From: Vermamoeba vermiformis
Taxonomy: Eukaryota
Direction: 5' to 3'
Assembly: GCA_045837725.1 (NCBI GenBank)
Contig: JBEWZL010000244.1
Location: forward strand, 248,001-312,000
DNA length: 64,000 bases
Below are positions 2,310 through 61,444 of this stretch, one piece after another. The notes beneath the pieces were generated by a model. That model made no database searches and was not told the DNA's origin. It saw nothing but the letters and a program-made list of their open reading frames with translations. The translations under genes and the position numbers were made by a program. Every line of letters starts with the position of its first letter. Positions within the stretch are counted from its first letter, which is position 1.

Positions 2310-3350
2310 ATGTTGAGGTAAAGTTACGCAGCTATTCATTGATTTCACCAGCACAAAATATTATCAGTTCTGCGCTGTGTGCTACTATTTATAGCGCTAT
2401 AAATACCGGCGTTTATATTACTAGTAAATTAAAAAATATTGTTGTTGTCGATTTATTTGTTCACGAATTCCGTTCACAGAACACTTGCCCATCGCGTGCT
2501 CACTCGTGCGAGACACGTGTCGCTACAAAGATCACGTGCTCTTCGTGCCAAATTTCCAGTCCGTGGTCCCAGTCCACAGCTCCACACCGCGGTGGCACGT
2601 GTCACTTCGCTCACTGCCCTCGGTCTCGCTGCTCTCGCTGTCACGCCCATCGAATTTCCTTTTAAGGAAAGTACCGAGCAGTCCAGCAACAAAGACACGC
2701 ACCACACATTCCCCGTGACGCTGCGGAACAATGCAGTGGCCCTGACGCTGATCGGCAGTGCAGTGCGCACAGTGACCATGTTCAACTTCTACACCTACAC
2801 GCTGGGGCTATATTTAGCTGACGATCAGCTCGCAGCTCTGCGCAAGGAGTGCGGAACAACTCCCAGCACGGAACAGGCCGCGACAGCACTGAGTCAGCTG
2901 AGCAGTGCAGTGACAGGTGCCAGTCCGCGCGTGGTGGCACTCATGCGCATTATTCCGTACCGCAGTGCCTCGCCGCCACACTTGTTGGGCAGTTTGTCCC
3001 GCGCCACCTGTCTGCGCGTCAGAGAGCTGCACGGCACCGAGGACGAGTCACGTGACTGGTGCGCGCAATTGTCCGCGAGTCTGCCCGGTGTGAAAGACAT
3101 TGCCCCGGGTCACGTGATTGACATTGAACTCCGTGCTGATGGCACCGCTTGTGTCTATTTTAAGGTGCGGTGACGTTCACTGAATCAGCAGTACTGACGC
3201 TATTCCTACCAGGGCCAGTTGACGGCAGAATTGACACGTGATTCGCGCGCAGTGGCAGCGTTGTTGCAACTATTCACAGGACCCAAGCCCCGCACTGCAG
3301 CTGTGCATCAAGCCCTGGTTGAGGGTCTGCGCGATGTACTTGCCAAATAA
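2310..3350 (+). CDS. Chalcone-isomerase-like fold protein (Aim18/Aim46/FAP type), 3 exons
   Basis: ATG at 2310 with intron 2318-2479 gives MLRTLAHRVLTR, a presequence-like start. Motif LIGSAVRTVTMFNFYTYTLGLY and C-terminal ALLQLFTGPKP resemble CHI-fold proteins. Confidence 0.75.
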
Positions 3351-6200: not shown

Positions 6201-7923
6201 ATGTCGGTCGATGCTCTTGCTGCACTAGTTGGATTTGACGATCCGTTACAGTTCCGCTATGCCTTGTGCTTGCTAGCTTGTTATCCCTTAGCGACAATCC
6301 ACAAATTACTGCCAAATGCACAGCTAAAATACACATATTCACTGTTAGTGGGTCTGTTCTATTGTTTCTTCTGCTTTGGATGGGATACGCTTCACTTTGT
6401 GGCCACGAGTACCGGCACTTATTTGTTAATGATTGTTAACAAAGGAAAATATCCTTGGTTAATAACTATATACAACTTGGTCTATTTAACATGGGGGTAA
6501 GCAGCTTCTAATTATCAATAATTTCTTTAATTATCAAAAAAACGAGTTTGTTTTATATATTCTCCTCTTTATTAATATGGTATCGGTTAGCCACTATGAC
6601 CGACTAGTGAATCACTATTTGGAGTATTCGCTTGACTGGACGCTGCCGCAAATGATTTTGACATGCAAGCTTGGGGCCTTAGGTTTCAATTACTATGACG
6701 GCACGCAAGTCTCTGATCCGAAGCAGTTGAAGCCTGAACAAGCCAAGACTCGCATCACTCGCTTGCCCAATCCCCTTGAATTCTACAGCTACGTATTTTT
6801 CTTTGTTGGATTTTTGACAGGTCCTTGGTAAGTGCTGGATCTTATTTATTATTCTCAGCCACATCCACTCACTGCACGACAGGGGTGAATTAAAGGAGTA
6901 CCAAGACTTTACTACGAAGGAGATGTACGCTGATGTAAGTAGCTGCACAGTGTCTTATTAGTGACTCATGTGTCGCAGAACAAGGGTGAGATCCCGAGTG
7001 CTACGCCGTTTGTGTTGCGTCGTGTGGTGATGGCAGTGGCAGGCTACATCTGCTTCCAACTCTCCAAGGTGATCAGCGCCGTCTACATCACCACTGACGA
7101 GTTCCTCACGCACTCGCTCGGCTATCGTATTGTCTACTACTACATTGCCTGTGAACTCGCCTTCAGCAAGTACTACCTCGCCTGGTACCTCGGTGAAGGT
7201 GCGTGTGCCTATGTAGGTCTCTCGTACAATGGCAAGGACAAGGACGGCAAGCCGCGCTGGGACCGCATCCAGATGGTGGACATTGTGCGCTGGAAACTCG
7301 CGCGCAACACTCGCGAGCTGGTGGCATACTGGAACATGATGATTGCCAAGTGGCTCAAGTTCCACATTCACTTCCGCGTGCTGCACAACAAGTTGTTCGG
7401 CGTGGTGCTCGGTCACACTGCTGCACGCGCAGTCACCTTTGCAGCGAGTGCGTTCTGGCACGGTCTGTATCCAGGCTACTACTTCTTTTTCTTGGGCTCC
7501 TCGCTGTTGTGGCTCGAGTGCGATGACTGTACGTAACTCAACTGAATAACAATCGTAGCGTACGACTGACATCCACTCTCAGTGCTCATGTACAAGGTCA
7601 AGCCCTGGATTGTCGACGAGAAGGGACAATTCAAGTACCCCCACACGACGATATATCGCACCTTGGGTACCATTCTCTCCTACCTCTCGCTCATGTACAA
7701 CGTCATGTCATTCCACGTATGTAGCGCAAAGACTTCTCCTCATCATAATGTACTGACCTGCTTGTAGTTACTCTCATACGACCGTGCTGTGCGTGGCTAT
7801 GCCTCAATCAATTATTTAGGTCACATCATAGTCATTTCCTTGATCGTCTACCTTAAGTTCATCGATCCACTCATCTTCGGCAAGCCTCGTAAATTGCCTC
7901 GTGACATTGAACGAGAAAAATAA
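6201..7923 (+). CDS. MBOAT lysophospholipid acyltransferase (Ale1/LPCAT-like)
   Basis: Multiple transmembrane segments, with QMILTCKL, FFFVGFLTGP, YWNMMIAKWL and the catalytic SAFWHGLYPGYY motif. Confidence 0.93.
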
Positions 7924-29951: not shown

Positions 29952-31097
29952 ATGGCTGAACAATCCTCAGTATTCAAAGCTAATATTCTCAAAGGCAAAG
30001 TGGCACTGATAACAGGTAGGTAACTTTTCTTTTCCTGCAAGCAAAACTTTCAATCAATAGTCAATGCTGCCTATTTATATGGAAGTGAAAATTATATGGA
30101 GATTAATGGCGAAATAAAGGTGGTGCAACCGGGATCAACTTCGGTATTACCAAGCTTCTTGGCACGCACGGCGCGAAGATCGGTAATTAATTTACAACTA
30201 GACACGCTTATGCATACATCAATACAGTATCGCCAATTGTTACTTAATTTGAATTTTAAATTTTGCCTGGATCGGCGATTTACGTCTCGTTTAGCAATCA
30301 TGGGTCGCCGCGAACAAGTCCTCAAATCTAGCTGCGAACAGTTGACACAACTTGGCGTCGAATGCACATGGGTCCAGGGGCAAGTACAGCGCCGACAACG
30401 TTTTTAGCAATGTCTAATGTCTTTGTTCGCCAGTGACGTGCGCGAGTACAAAGACTGTGAAAAAGCAGTGCAACAAGTGGTGGACAAGTGGGGCAAGTAA
30501 GTATTATACGCGCTCTAGTATTAGTCGCACTCGACTGACAGGTGTCACACCGCCAGACTCGACATTCTCGTCAATGGTGCTGCGGGCAATTTCCTCTCCC
30601 CAGCCGCCAAGCTGAGCTCGAATGGCTTCAAAACAGTGCTCATGATCGACACTGTCGGCACATTCAACATGTCACGTGCGGCCTATTCAGCCTTGGCGCG
30701 TCCACAACTCGCGAGTACTGCGCCAGCTGTGATCTTGAATGTCACTGCGTCGCTCCATCGTCCCGCCACCCCGATGCAAGTCCACGCCTCCGCGGCCAAG
30801 GCAGGTGTAGACTCGATCACACGCACCTTAGCCATGGAATGGGGTCCAGCAGGCATTCGTGTGGTGGGTGTGTCCCCCGGGCCTATTGCTGCCACTGAAG
30901 GCATGTCCAAGCTCGGCGGTCCTGATCCCACCGCTGTGTTGCAACAAGTGCCTCTCGGTCGTGCTGGTTCTGTCGAGGATGTGGCCCGTGCTGCACTGTT
31001 CTTGGTCTCCGATGCCGCGAACTGGGTCACAGGCACTACCATTGACGTCGATGGTGGCTGGGTCGTCAATCGCGCTGGATTCACCGCCAAGCTCTAA
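29952..31097 (+). CDS. DECR2: Peroxisomal 2,4-dienoyl-CoA reductase (SDR family)
   Basis: GKVALITGGATGI, LDILVNGAAGNF, IDTVGTFN, HASAAKAGVD and a C-terminal PTS1 (AKL). Confidence 0.93.
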
Positions 31098-36789: not shown

Positions 36790-39752
36790 TTACATATTTC
36801 GTTGCACATAATTCGGCACCCATTTGACGATGGAAGCAGTAATCGCTTGGCGCGTGATCGGCTTGGTAATGTAGTCGCTCATGCCCGAATTGATGCACTT
36901 GTCGCGATCACCTGGCAGCGCTGCAGCTGTTACAGCGATAATAGGCACGTGATAGTCGTCTCCCGCAGCGCCTTCATTCTCCCTAATGGCCTTGGAGGTC
37001 TCGTAGCCGTCGAGTCCGGGCATGTGACAGTCCATGAAGATCATTGCAAAGCGTTGTTTCTTGTTCACGATGAGGTCAAGTGCTTCGTAGCCATTGTTGG
37101 CGCAGGTTACATCGCAGCTCAGCTTTTTGAGCGTTAATTGCATCAACTTCTGATTGACCGGATGATCTTCAACAACGAGGATGTGTGGCACATTGTCATC
37201 GCGATGGGTGGTAACAACGCTCAATCGAGACGCAGGAGGGGTAGCAGGAATAGAATGCAATCCTGAGGCTATTGGGCACGGCAGTACAAACCAGAACAGT
37301 GCGCCATGTACCCTCGCGACTGATGAGTCCGGTGGTGCCGTGCATCAGTGTTACTAACTTCTTGCAAATGGACAGTCCCAGACCAGTGCCCCCGAACTTC
37401 CTTTGTGTGCCATGTCCTTGGACAAACGGAGAGAAGAGTTGTTGCTGCAAGTCCGCGGATATGCCAATGCCTGAGTCTTGCACGCTGAACAAGACATTCA
37501 CCGTGCTGTCCACGAGTGAGCTGAAGCTAGGCATGCTTGTGGCCAGTAGTTGCGTTGTCACTTCGCCAGTACGTTCTTCTGCAGCCTTGGCGGTGTTCAG
37601 TTTGACGTGTTGTGACTCCAAAAATTCGTGCACAAAACTCTCACGCATGTCTGGCACAGGTACTGCTTTGACAACGATTGAGCCTTGTGAAGGAGTGAAT
37701 TTGATGGCGTTGGAGATGAAATTGAGCAATATCTGTCCAATGCGCCCTTCATCGCCAATCAACTGTCGTGTCGCCAACATTTCATCGAGATGTACTTGCA
37801 CGTCCAATTGCTTGCCTTGAATCTTGTGCGCGAACATTTTGGTGCGTGTTTGCAACAGATCGACCAGATTGATTTCACTCTGCTCGAGTTCCATGCGACC
37901 AGAATCAATTTTGGAGTAATCGAGAATGTCATTGATCAGATCCAACAGCTGTGCACTCGAGTTCTGAATGATGTCGAGGTACTTGTGCTGATCAGTGGTC
38001 AATGTGGTCTCAGCGAGCATTTCACTCATGCCAATCACGCCGTTGAGTGGTGTGCGGATCTCGTGGCTCATAGTCGCCAAGAACTCTGACTTGAGTTGTG
38101 CCATGCGCAGTGCACTCTGCTCGCTGATTGCTAGCCGCGCTGCTTCTTTTTTGATGGTGATGTCAGAGGTCACGACCACCAGTCCAGTCACTTGATCGCC
38201 GACAGTGATAGGCGAGTAGTGCACTTCAAACCATCGGTCTGCAAAATTGGTCTCGATGGAGAACGCTTCTCCCGCTAGACCGCGGCGAATGTTCTCAGAG
38301 TACTGTGGCACGCCATGGCCCTCGAAGAATTCGTAGATTGACTTGCCCTTCAAGTTCTCGGTGCCAAAGGTCTCGCCCTTCTTCTCGCGCGGGCCCTCCA
38401 CGAACTGCACAATGCCCTGCGCATCGACGGTGTAAATCGAGACGGGGAAGTGTTTGATGATAGCTCGCAGCTGTGCTTCAGCAGCTGTTGCGTTGTCTTC
38501 TGCGCGCTGTTGCTCGTCGATGTCGGTGCAGGTACCGAACCACTTGTAGATCTCGCCAGTGCCCGCACGTTTGATGGGCAACGCGCGGATCAAGAACCAG
38601 CGGTATTGTGAATCAGCACCGCGGTATCTAGCGCGCACTTCGTACGTGCAGCCAGTCTCGACTGCGTGGTGCCACGCTTGCATGAGTCGTTCGTGGTCCT
38701 CGGGGTGCAGAAAAGTCTCCCAGCCGTGACCGAGCGCGCAGTTGAGTCCTGCTCCCGTGTACGTGAACCACTGCTTGTTGAAGTACGAGACAAAACCACT
38801 CGGCTGCAACAGAATCTATTAGTATTATATTCATATCTAATAAGCTGAATATAAATCGTAATTTATCATGCGAGTTTTCTATTGCCAACACTGTAAAGTG
38901 ACTGACGTGCGATCCAACACTTACATCCGAGGTCCAGACGAGCTGCGGAATAGTTTCTATAACAATTTTAACATCGTCCTCTCTTTGTCGCAGCTTTTCA
39001 CTGTCTTGCACGCCTGCCAACACGCGTTCATGAAGCCGAGTCACATCCTGCATTACGCCACTCAGCTTGATTACGCGTTGTACAGGTCGTTCATCACTCG
39101 AGAATGACACCGATGAGTTCAATGAGCTGCTGCCGCTGTGACTAGCGCGCACGTAATCAAAAACTTCGGCGCTGATGCTCATACACGTATCAATGGGCAC
39201 TAAACACAGATCTTCGGATTCGGACAATTCGTCAGGTGCGACACTTCCGCGGCAATTGATCCATTTAAGAGTACCATCGAGGCATTGTACCCTGAAGTCA
39301 AAGTCGAACTCGCCGTCGCTGAAATCAACCGTTACTTCGTCGTCTAAAAATTAGGGCTGTTAATTAAAACTGTTCGAATTATTATGGATATTATGTAGCC
39401 GCAGTGCAGTGTTTTACGTACTGGCTGATATTATTTCACATTATAATTCGTTTTCATGAAATTAAAAGAGCTCTCGCGCTGGAACAATTTTGGATTTACC
39501 TTTTGTGGCTGAATCAGCGAATGACTCGCAGTAGGCTATGAGTTTACTAATTTCGTGTAAGAATACGTCTCTATCAATGCAACATGCCAAAATTCTTTCC
39601 ATCGAAAGCCGTTCGTTTTCATCTTTAAATCCAAACAGAGCAGCCAGAGGAGGCGTGTATTCGAACCTATTCATCGTCAAGTCCCACTCCCAGCTAGCTA
39701 TTTTAGCGCTGCGTGTGGCGCGGCTTAATAAATTGCTCTTCTGCGTTAACAT
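36790..39752 (-). CDS. Hybrid sensor histidine kinase (3 PAS + HisKA + HATPase + receiver), with a frame disruption near 37309
   Basis: FLATMSHEIRTPLNGVIG, QILLNFISNAIKFT, VQDSGIG, GGTGLGLSIC, and the receiver motifs ILVVEDHPVNQ and FMDCHMPGLDG. The start codon is uncertain. Confidence 0.9.
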
Positions 39753-53413: not shown

Positions 53414-55408
53414 TTATTTGCGCCACAAACCACGCACGGCATCGAACAAGCCAGTGCGCGAGACTTGTTCCGTGGCCAAGCGGTACAGCGTGATCATTGG
53501 TCCCTCGGCACTGCTGTTCGAACCAGTAGCATACCGCCACAGACGCGAGGCAAATACAGCGAACGCACCGACAGTAACGGCCGTGAACAAGCGACGTGGC
53601 CAGCGATTAGGGCGCACGGCGGGCACGTGCCAACGGGCGTACGAAAGAGGGAAAGGAGCAGGTGCACCAAGTCTCTCGGCGACAGTCAGACCTGAAGTGG
53701 CTGCGTCCTCGTGGAAGCCAAACGTGCCCCAAGCACCGCAGAACAACACTGGTGGCTGAACGGTACTGAGCTTCTGTTGCTGTGAAACGTTCTAACGGAA
53801 GCACATTAGATCACATTCAATGACGTGCGTTGCAGTAGAGTTACCTCGAGCAAGAAGACAGGGTGCTCGTATTCGATCACTTTGTACGTCAGTTCTGGCT
53901 TGGGTGGTGAGAGCGGATTGAGTGTCACGAAGAAGTCTCTGCCGCACTCCTGCAACCAGGGCTGCAATCGATTCATCCAGTACGTCAAACAAATGTCGTC
54001 GTTGATTTCACCGGGCTTGTCGGCCTTCATCAACACGTTCCAGCTGCTCCACGTCTATCAATATAATAAGCAACGGGCTTAGCACGACATATAATCGAGA
54101 CTTACGCTTCTTCGAGTGGGCATTAAAGACGGATCGCTGTGCAAATAAGCGATGTTTTTCTTGAATTTAAAGTCTTTCAACAGTGTCTCTTCATCAGAGG
54201 TGATATCTTCGCCCAAAATTTCACGTGATTGGTCAGCGTGACACGCGAGCACCTAGGCACGAGTGAGAACTGGTCAACTATTATAATCGCTCGTTACTTA
54301 CGACTGAATCGAACACTTCTTCGTTGCCTTTATCATCGAACACATGTACTTTGCCGTTGACACGCTTGATCTTTGTCACACCAGTGCTTTTGCGCACATT
54401 TTCTGGCTTCAATTCTTGCAAGATCTTCTTCACGTACTCGATGCTGCCATTTTTGACTGAAAATCGTGTCAGAGTTCGCTATTTTTTAAGAATTGAAATG
54501 GATTATTTACCAGTGCGCCAGACCGGTCTGCCGACCAACTGCATAAAACAATGATTTTGCATGAAGTGGATCATAGTCTGAATAGGAAATTCGAACATAG
54601 TCGTGAGGGGTGTGGACCACACAGCGCCTGTCATGGGCAACAAATAATAGCGCACAAAGCTCTGTCGCGATACCGCAAAGTTAATACCGTGACCAAATAT
54701 GGCAATAATTTGATGAAATTATGGTTGTAAAATCCTCGTTATATAGTACGTATCGCGACATAATGTAAGTGATTGGTACTTACCTCTGAATAACCTCGGA
54801 GGCGGATGTATTCTCCAACCGTAACGCCGTTGAATTTAGGATTGTTCAACACTTCAACTGCTTCGTTATTGAATTTAACCATGTCAAGGCTAGAGATAAT
54901 TAGTTTTTGAAGCGTATTCGGATATTTGACACGCGATCGTGATTCATGAATACTTACAGCATGCTCCAGAAAGAAGGAGAAACAATATTTGACCTTTGAG
55001 CAAAAACGGTGTTGAGATTGTCGCTAGACCATTCGACATTCTCTTTGCCCTAACCGGCAAAATTAGATCCAAAAATCAAAATAAATCTTTGTAAAATTTC
55101 CTTACCCTCAGAGACAACGCAAAGCTCATATCAGATGCTACGGTTTCAACACCTACTTCTTTAAAAAAATTTACAAGGTTTGGGTAGTTTAGGGTGTTGA
55201 AAACAATGAAGCCGGTGTCGATCGGGACCTGTTTTTTCTGTCCTTTACTGTCCGTGAAGTCCACAGTGACTGTGTTGGTGTGTCCGCCAATGTAATCGTT
55301 CTTTTCATACAAGTACACGTCGTTTTCAGGTCGACGGTTAAGCGACCAAGCGCTCATCATTCCAGCAGCGCCGGATCCTACAACAGCAATTCGTTTTCTT
55401 TCGGTCAT
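53414..55408 (-). CDS. COG2907-type FAD/NAD-binding oxidoreductase (UfaD-like fatty acyl desaturase family) with a C-terminal hydrophobic anchor
   Basis: RIAVVGSGAAG, EKNDYIGGHTNT, IDTGFIVFNTLNYPNL, SDMSF, LHSDPSLMP, LTYWMNRLQ, YEHPVF and FCGAWGTFGFHED. Confidence 0.9.
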
Positions 55409-55677
55409 TGTGGTATATGCAATTAGCGAGTGCAAGAGATAATTGAGGTCGCAGCTATCGCGTGACCTGTCGAGCACGTGCGCTTTCTACAAATTTGGAA
55501 TTTCGGTTATGATAAAATTTGACCGTCAAATTTCTTCCTAGTTTTGACGAGCAAAATTATTTGTCTTTTTCTTTGCGTTCGCAAAACATTTTCTCTACGC
55601 AACCATTTATTGCACAACCACATTTCTTGTCTTTTTCATTCAATACGAAGCCACACTTCCTCAACTACTACCTACCT

Positions 55678-56652
55678 ATGCAGCTCAATATTGTTAAACA
55701 AAACTCCCTCTTGGAAGAGATTTGCTCGAAGAATGGCAAAACGGAGAAGGTTCATAACGTTGTTAAGAACATGCCTTTTACCATTATTGTCGGCAGTCGC
55801 GGAGTTGATTTAACGAAGGGCAATTTGGAAGCAAGACTCATCTACAATTCCGCTGATCGAAAAGAAGTCCCTTTCTTGGCCAAATCCCCGTTGGAATACT
55901 TCACCCACTTCAATGCCTCTGGTGACGAAGTTACTATCGAGTTCAGAATCAAGGTACTCAGCTCTCAATTGGAGAATTCCACTTTCTTGATCAAGGTGAC
56001 TGTCAAGCACGATGCGAAGAATGCCGAAGTTTTGTCTGCGCCCATTCGTTCCGTCTCAAAGGTTCAGCAAATTCAACGCAAGAAGGATGCCATTCAGAAC
56101 AATGTTGTCCCTACTACCCCATCGATTGATCAATTGAAGAAGAGAAAGCGCTCTCGTGCTGTCGTTGAAGATGAGGACTCGTCAAGCTCATCTCCTGAAA
56201 TCATGGAAATGCTACATCAAATCCGTGAGACTCAATTGCTTCAGCTTGAGATGATGGAAAGAGCCTCGATGGTGCAGACTCCTTTGATTCCCAAGCTCGA
56301 GTTCGATTCTTCGATGGAAGAGGACAGCTGCGCATCACCACGCACCCCTTCACTCGAAGATGCCTTCCGCACTTTCATTGCCGCCTATCAAGCTACCAGC
56401 GCTTCTGAACGACCTTCAAAGCTTCGTCGATTGCTTGAGTCTTCTGACGTGTCTCAAGCTGCTTCGGAGTTAGTTGTCAACCTTGGCCAAGCAGGTATTC
56501 AAGTACCTTGCTCGCACAACAGCGAAGACTTCAACACTGTCTGCAACTGCGCTAACTGCCCTTACAAGTCTCAGTTAAACCAACTCGACGACTTCTACAT
56601 GACCTATCTGACTAATCCGGTCAATTTAGAGCAAACTGAAACATCGATCTAA
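55678..56652 (+). CDS. CudA-family (amoebozoan STAT-related) transcription factor, intronless
   Basis: VHNVVKNMPF, RLIYNS..KEV..PLEY, GDEVTIEFRIKVLSSQLENSTF, PIRSVSK, the NLS-like KKRKR and LEDAFRTFIAAY..ERPSKLRRL match the recalled CudA core. Confidence 0.88.
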   Translation: MQLNIVKQNSLLEEICSKNGKTEKVHNVVKNMPFTIIVGSRGVDLTKGNLEARLIYNSADRKEVPFLAKSPLEYFTHFNASGDEVTIEFRIKVLSSQLENSTFLIKVTVKHDAKNAEVLSAPIRSVSKVQQIQRKKDAIQNNVVPTTPSIDQLKKRKRSRAVVEDEDSSSSSPEIMEMLHQIRETQLLQLEMMERASMVQTPLIPKLEFDSSMEEDSCASPRTPSLEDAFRTFIAAYQATSASERPSKLRRLLESSDVSQAASELVVNLGQAGIQVPCSHNSEDFNTVCNCANCPYKSQLNQLDDFYMTYLTNPVNLEQTETSI

Positions 56653-57567
56653 GTTCCTTACTTCGGTGCTTCGGCCTCTAAGTGTTCGGACCTGCTGCTC
56701 CAACGACCACCAGAGCAACCACAATTTTGGCTTCTAAGGTAAACATCCCCCAACTGTATATAGTGTATAATAGCTTTCGATTCCATTCAAATCATCAATG
56801 GAATTCAAATTCGATAAATTGTAATAATATCAATATTTTTTGTTTTATTCATTAATAGAATCAGTCTCACAACTTTATTCCCTTAGTTTCGTACTAGTTA
56901 GGAAGTGTGGCGACGAAGCTTCAGAACCTCCCTCGCAACCGGTGTGCACCCCAATCTCAACCGCAGCCGCGCATGTTCTGGCAAGATGTCTACGCAACCA
57001 GCGCTTAATGTTCATCTCGTTCGTTGCTCAAGGCACCAAAGAGCGTTGAGGTAGTGCGTATAGTGTCTCTTGTTTAATTACGCTTGTGTTTGTCAGACAG
57101 CTGCCAGCCACGCTAGTGCCAAGTTGTAGCCTCGCACTGGGTGCGATTGCCATGTGTCTTTATTATTTCGTTGTGTAGGGTATGTGTCACGTGTCTTTGT
57201 TTAATTTGTTAGAGCCAGAGCTGCGAACTTGTGGAGGCCTCCTCCGTTAAACGTGCCTTGAGCAATCGCTTTGTATTACAATCGTAAGTTGAGTTGCGGG
57301 TGAGTCGTTATGTAGTATATTTGAGTTTGTCCTAGATCGATTTTTGTTGCTTAGATCTGGCGAGTCCGATCTATTCAACGTGCATCTTGTATTTGTAGAA
57401 ATAAATGCTTATTTAGCATAATTATTGCGATGGGTGTATTAGATTATATTTGTGACTCGATCACAACCGTGGCCTGATAGGTCGCGCGACGTGATCGTAC
57501 TTTCACAAACTCGGACAATTTCAGAAAATCATTTTTGTTATTCAACCGAGGAGTGATCAACACGAGA

Positions 57568-60518
57568 ATGTACAGTTCCCGCGTTTATATCGGACATACC
57601 GGCCATTCTCGTCTTACTCCTGTCAAGCACACCTTTCGGTATCCAGTAAACTATTACGTTTTTGACTTGGACGAGCTTCAAAAATTAAGCGACAATGTAA
57701 GTTAATTGCCAGACCAACGGCATTAAGTATTTGGATGGTTCTTTATTATTTTCGGTGACAACCGCTCAAAATAATTCAATAAAATACTAACAAATCACCT
57801 GGCAGCTGTATCTCTTTGGTTACAATAAATCTCGTCCAGTAGCAATATATGACGACGATTATTTGGGTCGAGAACTGCCAGGAACCCCAATCAAACAAAA
57901 ATTGTATTCGGTGCTGAAGGAAAGACGCGTGGATCCAACACCAATATCGAGAATCGAGCTCGTAACATCTGCCCGATACTTTGGACACGCATTCAATCCA
58001 GTTAATTTTTATTACTGCTATCACAATGTTGCAAACCCGATTAACGGAGTAGATCAAATGGTTGATAGCGCTACAAATAATGAACAGCTGTATGCAATGG
58101 TCGTTGAAATCAATAATACATTTGGGGAGACGCACGTTCACGTAATTAAGAGCGATGAGAGTGCTCTGCCACTGAATGCAACGGAGGATCCGTACCGAAA
58201 CAAAAAGGTAAGATTCTATTTCCCATTGATTCATTAGCAACGTACAAATATGAACATCGACTTGAAATATCGAGTATTGGATTTGTCCGTGTTGCTCAAT
58301 TTGGCGGTTTTATTTCTAGCTTTCAGACCTTTCAATTTCAATTTGCAATACATGGGCGTTATTTTACTATAATAACGATATTATTATCTAGCTTACCAAG
58401 AGTACATTTGAATACAATTATGTGCGATGGCGTGACTTCCATGTGAGTCCGTTCAACGACCGTCAAGGCTACTTTCACTTTCAATTCGCTGACGTCCGCA
58501 AGTAAGCTTGGAATTATAATCAAGTTATAATAGATTCTTAATATCTGTATTCAGGGAGTTGCACGTGAAGATATCTCAAACCGATGCAAGTTTTAATCCG
58601 ATTGTTGTTGCGACTTTGCGTGGGGACAATTGCTATTCACTGTGCGACTCTGTTATTGCGAAGAACATCGTTAGGTAAGTTGGACACGACTGCGTTCTAG
58701 GATTGGTATTAATTTATATACAGATATCCCGTGACAGCACTGATGACATTCCCTCGGATCTTGGTTCAAGCGGGCAAGTTACACTTCAGGTACGTCGTAG
58801 TACAGCCACTAAGCACAATACTTAACCTCTGCCATAGCAAGAAGCTACCTATCTATGTCAAACCAAACCCAACTCAGCCGGACACAATCATCTTGATTCC
58901 TCCTGGAGCCTTGCAAGTTGAATGTATGACACGTGTCACGGATGCGTGGCGTGCTCTGTTCAGCACAAAGGCCGCATTGTTGCCAGTAGGTTCTTTGTCA
59001 CTACAATTGCCTGATGGAAAAGTGCAGTCGTTCGGAGTTGAGAGTGAGTATTCAAAAGCCGTTAATGCGGTCATAATTCTGACTATCATTTTAGGTTCCA
59101 CCAAGCCATGTTTAGAGCTCAAAGTAGTCAATTATGACTTCTTCAATCGTATATATGAACATGGGTCTTTTGGTTCAGCTCTTGCATTCATGGCCGACGA
59201 CTTCTCATGCCCAACAAATCAAATGCGAGATTGGCTGGCCTTCTTGCAAACGACAAGTAAAGCCACCAGTGTTGCCGGTGTACAGACAAACAGTAAACCA
59301 CTGCTGAAGAATGGCAACAAGTTGACTGTGCCCGAGTCCACAGCACAAGAACGCTTCTTGGCGAGCTTCTTAGACCCGACAATGAGCTTCCATTGTCCTT
59401 CATTTGACAAAAAAAGCATCAATGAGCGAGCGTTGATTGATATCAGCGAGTCTCGGCCTAAAGCACGTGGTCCTCAGTCCCTTGAAAGTGCTCAGATCCA
59501 GGGCATCAATCAGCTGTTAGACTTGGTTTCAATCAAGAGCGAGCACAAAGTACTTGATCTATCGAATGGTAAGTCATCGATGTTGAGCGTATTCGAGTCT
59601 AACAATCCCTTAGGATGGGGTTCACTGACAGCGATTCTCGAGGAACGTAACACAGGGTGTTCAATGACGTGCGTTGTGTTGACAGTACAACAGCTGTTGC
59701 ACGTCAGAAAACGTCTTCCAGCGAACTCAAACGTCAATGTGATTCTGTTCGAGGACTTTGTAGAGCAGAACGCATCAGCAGGCAGTCAAGGCTTTGATGT
59801 CATCTTTGCGGTGGAGAGCAGTGAGATGTTTGCTGGGTACATGACGAACCAGCGAATTCAATCACGCACCGGCAGGAGTGCAACAACGACACGCCAAGAA
59901 TTGTATCGATTTTTTGAGCTGTGCTACAGCAGACTCGAGCAGGGAGGGCAACTCGTGGTCCAGTCAGTTCATCGCGTTGCCGACACGAGGCCAGCAGAGA
60001 TTAAAAACCAATTGTCCTCTTCGATTGTCAGACCTTCCATTGCCTCCAAGTGGCGCATGCAGAAAGCTCGTGTATCACGATGGATGGAGATCAAGCTGTT
60101 CGAGCACATCACCGAGTACGTCATCAATCCCTTCGAGCTCGACAAGAGATTTTATCGCAACTTCTCCTTCGTGCCCAATGTGCGCATCATTTCCGCGCCA
60201 GACGCAGTGCCTGGAAATGTCGACTTTATTGCCGCAGCTACTGGCAGCAAATTCACAATGGAGTCGATGAAAGACTTGGGTTCGATGGACTATGCATTGG
60301 CATATCAGACATGGGCTAATAATTTGGAAGATGCTCGTGTAGACATTCGCGCGAGTGGTTCTGTTACGCTGTATGACAACGCAGTGAACTCTGAACGAGA
60401 TCGACAACTCGCTGAAGAATTGAAGCGACAGTTCAGGTATTACTTGAGAGGCGCGCAACATATGTTCGAACTAGGACTATTTGGCGTGTCGAGATACCTG
60501 TTTAGCAAACAAATGTAA
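57568..60518 (+). CDS. DUF1365 (UfaO-like) domain fused to a degenerate cyclopropane-fatty-acyl-phospholipid synthase-like methyltransferase domain
   Basis: DUF1365 motifs HSRLTPVKHTFRYP, FDLDEL, RYFGHAFNPVNFYYCY, VVEINNTFGE, FHVSPFN and PRILVQAGKLH. CFA-like remnants FLDPTMSF, SLESAQ, VLDLSNGWG and RLEQGGQLVVQ. Confidence 0.85.
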
Positions 60519-60638: not shown

Positions 60639-61444
60639 ATGATGACAAACGAGCAAATCAAGGCCAAAGTAGATCAACTCTATTTTCATACATTCGGAGG
60701 GCTGCTGGAGCCAAACGAAGAAACGCCACATTTAATCATCGAACCATATTTATACTTAGGAAGCATGGCCGATGCATACAATATTGATAAACTCGTTGAG
60801 AAAAATATAACAAATGTTGTAAACGTTGCTGATCCCAGCCAAGAAGGTAATTCTATTTTTGATTACCATCCCCTAATTTAAAAAATACTGTATAATTTTG
60901 CGTTAATCATGGGCTTTCAACAGACGGCAAGGGATCCAAAGCTTTTTCAGGAGCAGTAATACATTTTCCTCATCAAAGACGCATTCAAATCAACTATTTG
61001 GGCTTGTGTAAGTTAATAATTGATCTGTTTATTGGATCCAGCACTAAAGGTGGAAATTGAATTTTAGGTTGTATCGACACGGAGGATTTTCAAATTCGTC
61101 CATTCTTTGACCGAGTATCAGACTTTATTAAGGCAGCTAAAGATAAGGGCGAGAAGGTGTTAGTGCACTGTCAAGCTGGTGTCAGCAGATCTGCAGCAGT
61201 TGGTAAATTTCATCCTTATTGTCAGAATACCTTTTACTAATATGGTGCAGTTTGTGCCTATTTAATGCGCGAGTATGGCTGGACCGCTGAAAAAGCATTG
61301 CTACACGCGCATCAAAAGCGGAACTGTGTTGCACCGAACCTCTCGTTTATGAAGCAGTTGTTCCTCTATCAAAATGAATTAGGCATTAAAATGACCGAAG
61401 AACTGTTTACTAAGCCAGCTCCAAAAATAACCATCGATTACTAG
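60639..61444 (+). CDS. Atypical dual-specificity protein phosphatase
   Basis: IEPYLYLGS, the catalytic VLVHCQAGVSRS, CAYLM and VAPNLSFMKQL. Confidence 0.93.

Follow-up and report, generated by a model that had tools for sequence, protein, structure and literature searches.

How eukaryotes make furan fatty acids is still an open question; in a 2026 review, the roles of the plant homologues, Arabidopsis UFAM1/UFAD1 and UFAO1, are still termed 'putative' (PMC13247531). We asked what bearing on it a pair of genes in the amoeba Vermamoeba vermiformis might have. The pair lies in a stretch of 64,000 nucleotides (assembly GCA_045837725.1, contig JBEWZL010000244.1, positions 248,001 to 312,000 of the forward strand), called the window throughout, and consists of a gene for a flavin adenine dinucleotide (FAD) oxidoreductase and a gene that fuses a DUF1365 domain to a CMAS-like domain, the latter with the predicted fold of cyclopropane fatty acid (CFA) synthases. 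On balance we favour reading this as a genuine, expressed gene pair of bacterial type, which carries the three domains of a lipid-modification module and whose product is likely a modified unsaturated fatty acid. The protein families, the bacterial operon, the bacterial fusion and the existence of plant and algal homologues are already known; new here are a fusion partner other than that found in plants, a strongly remodelled CMAS domain and, possibly, a composite origin. The value of the locus is chiefly that of a compact test case for eukaryotic furan-fatty-acid biosynthesis: an expressed three-domain pair in a heterotrophic eukaryote, arranged differently from plants, offers a small gene set for knock-out or expression, and its unusual methyltransferase-like half could reveal whether ring formation needs methylation.

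Gene structures and transcription of the pair

Two gene models were built from a reading of the region in all frames, and Pfam was run on 13 open-frame pieces, eight of which matched no family (Table 1). The two genes are divergently oriented, with 2,159 bp between their start codons and a single plus-strand gene in between. A first-pass annotation, made by a model from the sequence alone, had described the locus as an intron-rich FAD oxidoreductase gene on the minus strand and a DUF1365/CFA-synthase-like fusion gene on the plus strand, divergent and about 2.2 kb apart; both genes lie exactly at the coordinates that it gave, and the three families that it had named are present.

Table 1. Features of the locus, with positions counted from the first letter of the window
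Feature	Position	Strand	Remarks
UfaD-like FAD oxidoreductase gene	53414..55408	-	8 exons, 513 amino acids (aa); ATG at 55408, stop 53414-53416
Oxidoreductase exons	55408-55106, 55049-54958, 54889-54784, 54661-54511, 54456-54302, 54252-54106, 54054-53845, 53791-53414	-	
Oxidoreductase C-terminal extension	53414..53656	-	~80 aa, not in bacterial homologues; residues past the last column filled in most bacterial rows
Short spacer, possible two-way promoter	55409..55650	.	oxidoreductase start codon to first ATG of the middle gene, ~240 bp
Middle gene, family unrecognised, outside the module	55651..56652	+	333 aa from first ATG; open frame 55516-56652
DUF1365::CMAS-like fusion gene	57568..60518	+	8 exons, 803 aa; ATG at 57568, stop 60516-60518
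Fusion gene exons	57568-57696, 57806-58207, 58392-58501, 58555-58674, 58724-58789, 58838-59043, 59095-59568, 59614-60518	+	
DUF1365 (UfaO-type) half	57577..58875	+	exons 1-6; PF07103 match, 40-49% identity to bacterial proteins
Linker joining the two halves	58876..59043	+	homologous in the bacterial fused family; inside the 346-bit alignment
Strongly diverged CMAS-fold (CFA-synthase-like) half	59095..60515	+	Pfam CMAS, Foldseek matches
S-adenosylmethionine (SAM)-binding motif I	59550..59624	+	split by in-frame 45-nucleotide (nt) intron 7 (59569-59613); VLDLSNGWGS, against bacterial vLEIGCGWG

The oxidoreductase gene has seven introns of 49-122 nt, all with GT..AG ends. Its first exon matches NAD_binding_8 (E 4.5e-14) and Amino_oxidase (E 2.4e-9) in Pfam, in keeping with an amine-oxidase-type fold, and encodes the N-terminal FAD/NAD Rossmann motif (GSGAAG, residues 11-16), and a search of NCBIfam assigned no family to the later exons. 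Homology to bacterial proteins extends over the full length: phmmer comparison with open reading frames of bacterial operons gave E values from 3.5e-58 to 6.3e-96 in the 70 rows listed, identity to the bacterial proteins is 37-46% over ~430 aa, and the protein keeps 66 of the 72 columns that are at least 90% conserved among 71 bacterial rows. Its C-terminal extension includes a moderately hydrophobic stretch, LFTAVTVGAFAVFASRLW (aa 455-474, ~53537-53593; best 19-residue Kyte-Doolittle mean 1.23), and as a guess it might serve as a membrane or lipid-droplet anchor. Both the oxidoreductase and the fusion protein begin at the first positions of the bacterial profiles and therefore have no N-terminal extension, which suggests that neither carries an organelle-targeting presequence.

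Seven introns, again all GT..AG and 45-184 nt long, also interrupt the fusion gene; because three of them are in frame (48, 51 and 45 nt), the final 1.8 kb of the gene forms one uninterrupted open frame. The DUF1365 family (PF07103; cut-off 25) is matched by exon 1 at 34.6 bits (E 2.1e-8) and by exon 2 at 91.9 bits (E 6.2e-26), and NCBIfam returned no family for this half. The half retains 59 of the 70 columns conserved to at least 90% in 60 bacterial fused proteins, and contains the motifs NPVNFYYCY, EINNTFGE and FHVSPF. When a profile of these 60 proteins was compared with the spliced fusion protein, it aligned in one collinear stretch of 346 bits (profile positions 3-484 of 658) that covers the linker as well as the CMAS domain's first half, followed by weak collinear pieces at 518-543 and 579-619. 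The DUF1365::CMAS fusion was therefore inherited from, or is shared with, bacteria, and is not a eukaryotic invention. A 442-aa protein at NCBI, P0001, is 98% identical and comes from a near-identical strain; its model starts within the CMAS half and reads through intron 7, so that the fusion gene has probably been deposited in a shortened form from which introns were not removed.

RNA data, for which four of the 23 public runs available were compared with the window, show transcription and splicing of both genes. RNA-type contigs of the public run X1, which are 95-99% alike to the window and thus derive from a close relative or another strain, skip all seven oxidoreductase introns (53791>53845; 54054>54106; 54250>54300, cut +2; 54456>54511; 54661>54784; 54889>54958; and 55048>55105, cut +1). 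Four of the seven introns of the fusion gene are likewise skipped: intron 1 (57696>57806), intron 4 (58673>58724, one letter between), intron 5 (58787>58836, cut +2) and intron 6 (59043>59095). For intron 2, a loose contig end at 58390 that bears the last letters of exon 2 fits the model; introns 3 and 7 are absent from the X1 joints listed and rest on their GT..AG ends and on homology. In the case of intron 7, the related protein P0002 diverges right after 'VLDLSNG', and the alignment runs uninterrupted once the intron is spliced out. A contiguous X1 piece spans 59789-60207, so the odd middle of the CMAS half is exonic and no overlooked intron. In X1 the oxidoreductase gene has a word depth of 10-18 and the fusion gene one of 1-6; the middle gene has the highest, 126.7. 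Raw RNA reads of two runs with the same species label, X21 and X22, place almost nothing on the two genes at 95% likeness and show many differences over the middle gene; we read their source as a relative too distant to map, which makes them uninformative on expression.

The bacterial module and the chemistry it suggests

In bacteria, homologues of the two genes are neighbours in operons. A search with the DUF1365 exon found 268 proteins at E <= 0.001 among 373 candidates; 99 of the 120 matches listed are 620-700 aa long, nearly all listed of this length carry both PF07103 and PF02353, and the nine with an organism name are all bacterial (35-49% identity). Each prokaryotic species was then represented by one genome in a scan for DUF1365 loci; the pattern matched 590 times, and 574 of these matches were confirmed as DUF1365 relatives. 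Among the best 80 of these loci, an oxidoreductase homologue is present in 71, a CMAS gene in 72 and all three families in 64, and in 18 DUF1365 and CMAS share one frame. The oxidoreductase homologue ends just upstream of the DUF1365 match in the loci listed. Typically the three genes share a strand and run oxidoreductase, DUF1365, CMAS, and a further CMAS gene often accompanies them. Of the nine loci that lack the oxidoreductase, five offer no room for it, because their DUF1365 lies within ~500 bases of the contig start. The phyla represented include Thermodesulfobacteriota, Verrucomicrobiota, Acidobacteriota, Actinomycetota, Planctomycetota and Pseudomonadota. The conserved proteobacterial operon that the first-pass annotation had described is thus real, and it is spread more widely than claimed. 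DUF1365 was found in one (Caulobacter vibrioides) of 14 named control genomes, a set that did not include Rhodobacter sphaeroides.

Many of the bacterial loci have two CMAS-type genes, in the order FAD-DUF-CMAS-CMAS in 12 and CMAS-FAD-DUF-CMAS in seven, an arrangement that suggests a second methylation step or specialisation of paralogues.

Close counterparts of the fusion protein are bacterial DUF1365::CMAS proteins of ~655 aa, encoded in FAD-oxidoreductase operons of Thermodesulfobacteriota, Lentisphaerota, Bdellovibrionota, Vulcanimicrobiota and others, which have the same domain order and the same linker. The eukaryotic fusion protein exceeds them in length by ~150 aa, its CMAS half carries insertions, and fewer than half of the invariant residues of this half are kept; its oxidoreductase partner comes from another clade than the oxidoreductases in the operons of the fused family.

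The characterised example of the module is the UfaD-UfaO-UfaM system of Rhodobacter (Cereibacter). According to Lemke et al. 2020 (PMC7380195), UfaM methylates vaccenate, UfaD (RSP1091) desaturates the product, and UfaO (RSP1090, with DUF1365) inserts O2 to give the furan ring; these activities are shown in R. sphaeroides and Rhodopseudomonas palustris. The R. palustris homologues are enough to support the pathway, and the paper also mentions eukaryotic homologues. The roles given to the three enzymes in the initial reading agree with this account. By family membership, the window genes can be likened to UfaM, UfaD and UfaO and to RPA2569-2571 of R. palustris, the same three protein families being represented. 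Unlike the Rhodobacter ufa genes, those of the window are spliced, nuclear and divergent, with one gene between them, and their DUF1365 domain is fused to a diverged domain of methyltransferase fold.

The present data establish how the genes are built, that they are spliced and expressed, their homology, how their homologues are linked and fused in bacteria, and the unequal divergence of the domains. Taken together, the three domains suggest a scheme in which the enzyme activities, the substrate, the product and any joint action of the two genes are predicted. The well-conserved oxidoreductase has most likely remained an FAD-dependent desaturase of a lipid-bound acyl chain, and the DUF1365 half, also well conserved, most likely still performs the O2-dependent step. 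The CMAS-fold half would have arrived already fused, as it is in many bacteria, and would since have changed greatly while remaining under selection; it may still employ SAM, though on a changed substrate, or its role may be confined to holding the lipid on which the DUF1365 half acts. The pair would then likely yield a modified unsaturated fatty acid, be it methyl-branched, a conjugated diene or a furan, for membranes or storage lipids.

Plants offer a eukaryotic comparison. According to Omata et al. 2024 (PMC10940516), Arabidopsis AT3G23510 aligns both to UfaM (34%) and to UfaD (38.5%), AT1G30130 aligns to UfaO (26%), and the two proteins localise to lipid droplets and have been proposed to make furan fatty acids; the fused FAD domain that the first-pass annotation had ascribed to plant cyclopropane synthases is borne out by the first of these alignments. 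Like the window, Arabidopsis has a eukaryotic set in which two of the three domains are fused, but the fusion is a different one: in UFAM1/UFAD1 (AT3G23510) the oxidoreductase is joined to the methyltransferase and the DUF1365 protein, UFAO1 (AT1G30130), stands alone, whereas in the window the separate protein is the oxidoreductase, and DUF1365 is the domain joined to the methyltransferase-like one. The comparison is one of domain arrangement rather than of sequences. In Chlamydomonas, one study reports that singlet oxygen jointly induces CFA1, CFA2 and a DUF1365 gene, a response that depends on SAK1 (PMC4067076), and a 2026 preprint reports furan fatty acids in the flagellate Cafeteria burkhardae upon giant-virus infection, with no pathway reconstructed there (10.64898/2026.09.28.754671). 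As far as we searched the literature, no eukaryotic DUF1365::CMAS fusion has been described, the preprint's supplementary candidate-gene Tables S2 and S3, which may bear on the matter, lying outside that search; nor did we find a paper that pairs furan fatty acids with amoebae.

The diverged CMAS-fold half and the possible product

The part of the scheme that fits least comfortably is the C-terminal half of the fusion protein. Its last long frame matches Pfam CMAS (PF02353) at 38.4 bits (E 1.2e-9, cut-off 27), over profile positions 18-177 of 273 only. An AlphaFold model of the frame 59097-60515, built with 59 other rows in the alignment, has a predicted local distance difference test score (pLDDT) of 64 and a predicted template modelling score of 0.69, and its top Foldseek matches are the CFA synthases 6bqc, 5z9o and 7qos (E ~1e-15, probability 1.00, template modelling scores of 0.66-0.73 by target length), followed by mycolic-acid methyltransferases. 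The predicted fold is thus that of the CFA synthases of E. coli, Lactobacillus and Aquifex and of the mycolic-acid methyltransferases (6bqc, 5z9o, 7qos, 7l9u, 8raq), from which the window domain differs by an identity of only 12-17%, by sequence E values of 0.005-0.24, by its altered motif I and by an insertion of ~80 residues modelled with low confidence.

Kept in this half are FLDxM, the AQ pair, GWG, GCxxT, the Q after strand 2, both glutamates of SiEMxEAVG, the Q of viQvI, W, Y..W, and the YY near the C-terminus. Several of these, namely both E residues, the Q of viQvI, YY, GWG and the T and Q columns that follow strand 2, presumably correspond to positions lining the SAM and bicarbonate sites of CFA synthases.

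Several observations weigh against the reading that we favour. The CMAS half keeps only 40 of the 93 near-invariant columns in an alignment with 56 bacterial rows, and 39 of 83 in the alignment of the DUF1365 half with its 60 bacterial rows. Lost are HYDL, the first glycine of GCGWG (here SNGWG), DYR, FPGG and the C and A of YCEAGF, together with the M, A and G of the EMxEAVG block; motif I is accordingly not intact, its first glycine, invariant in the 56 bacterial rows, being replaced by S and the preceding column being changed too. The domain falls far short of the NCBIfam equivalogs, scoring 24.3 bits against a cut-off of 400 for CFA synthase and 20.7 bits against 390 for mycolic-acid methyltransferase, and its best sequence match in the PDB is UmaA at E 0.005, followed by MmaA1 at 0.025 and E. 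coli CFA synthase at 0.24. Confidence in the model is middling, with ~160 residues under pLDDT 50; the low-confidence stretches include residues 160-173, which are intron 7 read through, and residues 296-375; and the CFA-synthase fold is partly imposed on the model, because the alignment behind it consists mostly of bacterial CMAS proteins. Two further points concern the pair as a whole. The unequal X1 word depths of its members (10-18 as against 1-6) are no demonstration of co-expression, and the gene that the oxidoreductase faces across the short spacer, which the X1 contigs narrow further (left edge at 55416, right start by 55619), is the middle gene and not the fusion gene.

These results temper what had been claimed for the locus. 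The statement that the amoeba 'keeps the pathway' is an inference rather than a finding, because the CMAS half is remote from all functional CFA synthases and enzymes of UfaM type. As far as the oxidoreductase and DUF1365 are concerned, it is reasonable to suggest furan or other modified fatty acids; the state of the methyltransferase-like half weakens the suggestion. A furan product is plausible; which product the gene pair makes cannot be predicted, given the altered methyltransferase part.

The foremost alternative, which we think rather unlikely, is that the CMAS half is no longer a methyltransferase at all. It would then be a lipid-binding or scaffolding domain for the DUF1365 half, with a separate methylase encoded elsewhere, or with an unmethylated oxygenated lipid, unlike the bacterial 9M5 furan fatty acid, as the product. 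The changes at 53 of the 93 near-invariant columns, the first glycine of motif I and FPGG included, speak for this, as do the shortfall against the equivalog cut-offs and the scarcity of relatives: a word-indexed homologue search returned two matches among 8000 scored candidates, and phmmer against 1.84 billion representatives found only two relatives, P0123 (67% identity) and P0002 (78%). The odd residues of the domain recur in P0123, which points to selection and not decay, and a domain that stays intact at 67% identity in a relative is what one expects of a new but real role. Set against this are the retained glutamates, Q, YY pair, GWG and T/Q columns, and the fact that S in place of the first glycine of motif I is not by itself incompatible with SAM binding.

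Origins of the pair and its surroundings

If the two genes had entered the amoeba as one bacterial operon, they might be expected to share their nearest bacterial relatives. In a quick DUF1365 tree of 78 rows, the eukaryotic half falls in a 19-row clade with 14 fused forms (Shimodaira-Hasegawa-like approximate likelihood ratio test (SH-aLRT) support 85), where its neighbour is from Bdellovibrionales (SH-aLRT 80). The other major clade, which we assume to include UfaO, comprises 43 rows, every one stand-alone, and contains all those from Pseudomonadota. In a quick oxidoreductase tree of 83 rows, a deep split (SH-aLRT 99) sets the eukaryotic protein apart from the fused-type side, and the protein belongs to an 11-row group (SH-aLRT 98) with Cupriavidus, two Nevskiaceae and seven database proteins; its identity is 40-46% to the grouped database proteins, as against 37-40% to proteins from the loci. 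Constraint tests were run on reduced sets of 39 rows with LG+G4 fast searches and the approximately unbiased (AU) test, whose p-values are rough because of the simpler model and the long eukaryotic branch (0.93-0.97). Forcing the oxidoreductase onto the fused-type side costs 58.8 log-likelihood units (AU p = 0.016), and forcing the DUF1365 half to the three Pseudomonadota rows nearest to the oxidoreductase costs 77 (AU p = 0.0013); a tree that only requires the DUF1365 half to lie among the stand-alone forms is not rejected (p = 0.39). In this sample, then, the two neighbours have no common nearest bacterial relatives, and one simple operon transfer is not their obvious history.

One bacterial locus has the same mixed make-up. 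In L016, from a Kiritimatiellae metagenome-assembled genome and listed with L073, a fused DUF1365::CMAS gene follows an oxidoreductase of the clade otherwise found beside stand-alone DUF1365, so a single transfer from such a donor is possible.

A composite history also admits a more specific scenario, which we judge unlikely: the CMAS half of the fusion, rebuilt under selection at more than half of its invariant positions and without UfaM-type methylation, would present or select another lipid for the DUF1365 oxygenase, and the oxidoreductase, from a different bacterial lineage, would have been brought adjacent secondarily. If that were true, the locus would be a two-gene lipid cluster assembled by a eukaryote, through which a protist that does not photosynthesise makes an oxygenated or furan-type fatty acid not described before.

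We give still less credence to the proposal that the proximity of the genes is a relic, left by a transferred operon that was broken by an inversion and an inserted gene, with no joint regulation and with enzymes that may act in unrelated processes. The bacterial genes are adjacent and co-directional, and those of the window are divergent around an unrelated and far more highly represented gene, as such a history would leave them; the named best matches of both genes are bacterial, and the mixed locus L016 makes a donor of the required type possible. The constraint tests count against it, since they keep the oxidoreductase outside the clade that accompanies fused DUF1365::CMAS and separate the DUF1365 half from the oxidoreductase's nearest bacterial rows, and so does the high conservation of both the oxidoreductase and DUF1365.

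An artefact, finally, is scarcely credible in any form: against bacterial contamination, a pseudogene pair or chance adjacency of unrelated oxidoreductase and methyltransferase genes stand the seven GT..AG introns of each gene, their removal in RNA-type contigs, the eukaryotic neighbours described below, intact frames conserved in relatives and the operon partnership in 71 of 80 bacterial loci.

A Pfam scan of the 136 other open frames of the 64-kb window found cullin, eIF2B, aldehyde dehydrogenase, VPS13, histone, HORMA, FHA, cyclin and hybrid histidine kinase, and among these frames no additional CMAS, DUF1365 or amine-oxidase gene. The cullin, eIF2B, histone, VPS13 and hybrid histidine kinase genes are ordinary eukaryotic nuclear neighbours, and it is on their account that bacterial contamination is excluded.

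The gene between the two module genes had been labelled a transcription factor, a label for which we find nothing: it matches no Pfam family, has no PDB sequence match at E <= 1, and yields a single-sequence AlphaFold model with a pLDDT of 39. Over the region 55651-57318 on the plus strand, X1 shows an intron at 56737-56884, 3' of the stop codon of the long frame, X21 has a joint at 56573>56630, and both X21 and X22 have a joint at 56738>56895 with five foreign letters between. The 3' end of the gene model is therefore unsettled.

Directly 3' of the fusion gene, at 60640-61444 on the plus strand, are open frames with the motif VHCQAGVSRS, which presumably resemble a dual-specificity phosphatase. 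Three lipid-related frames on the plus strand, encoding a chalcone-isomerase-like domain (2433-3170), an MBOAT acyltransferase (6490-7533) and a short-chain dehydrogenase (30525-31094), lie 23-50 kb from the pair, with no evidence of membership in the module; the chalcone-isomerase-like domain has the fold of fatty-acid-binding proteins. The hybrid histidine kinase, encoded on the minus strand at 36793-38815, consists of PAS domains, HisKA, HATPase_c and, after these, a response-regulator receiver (Pfam), and kinases of this kind are typical of protists, fungi and plants rather than of animals.

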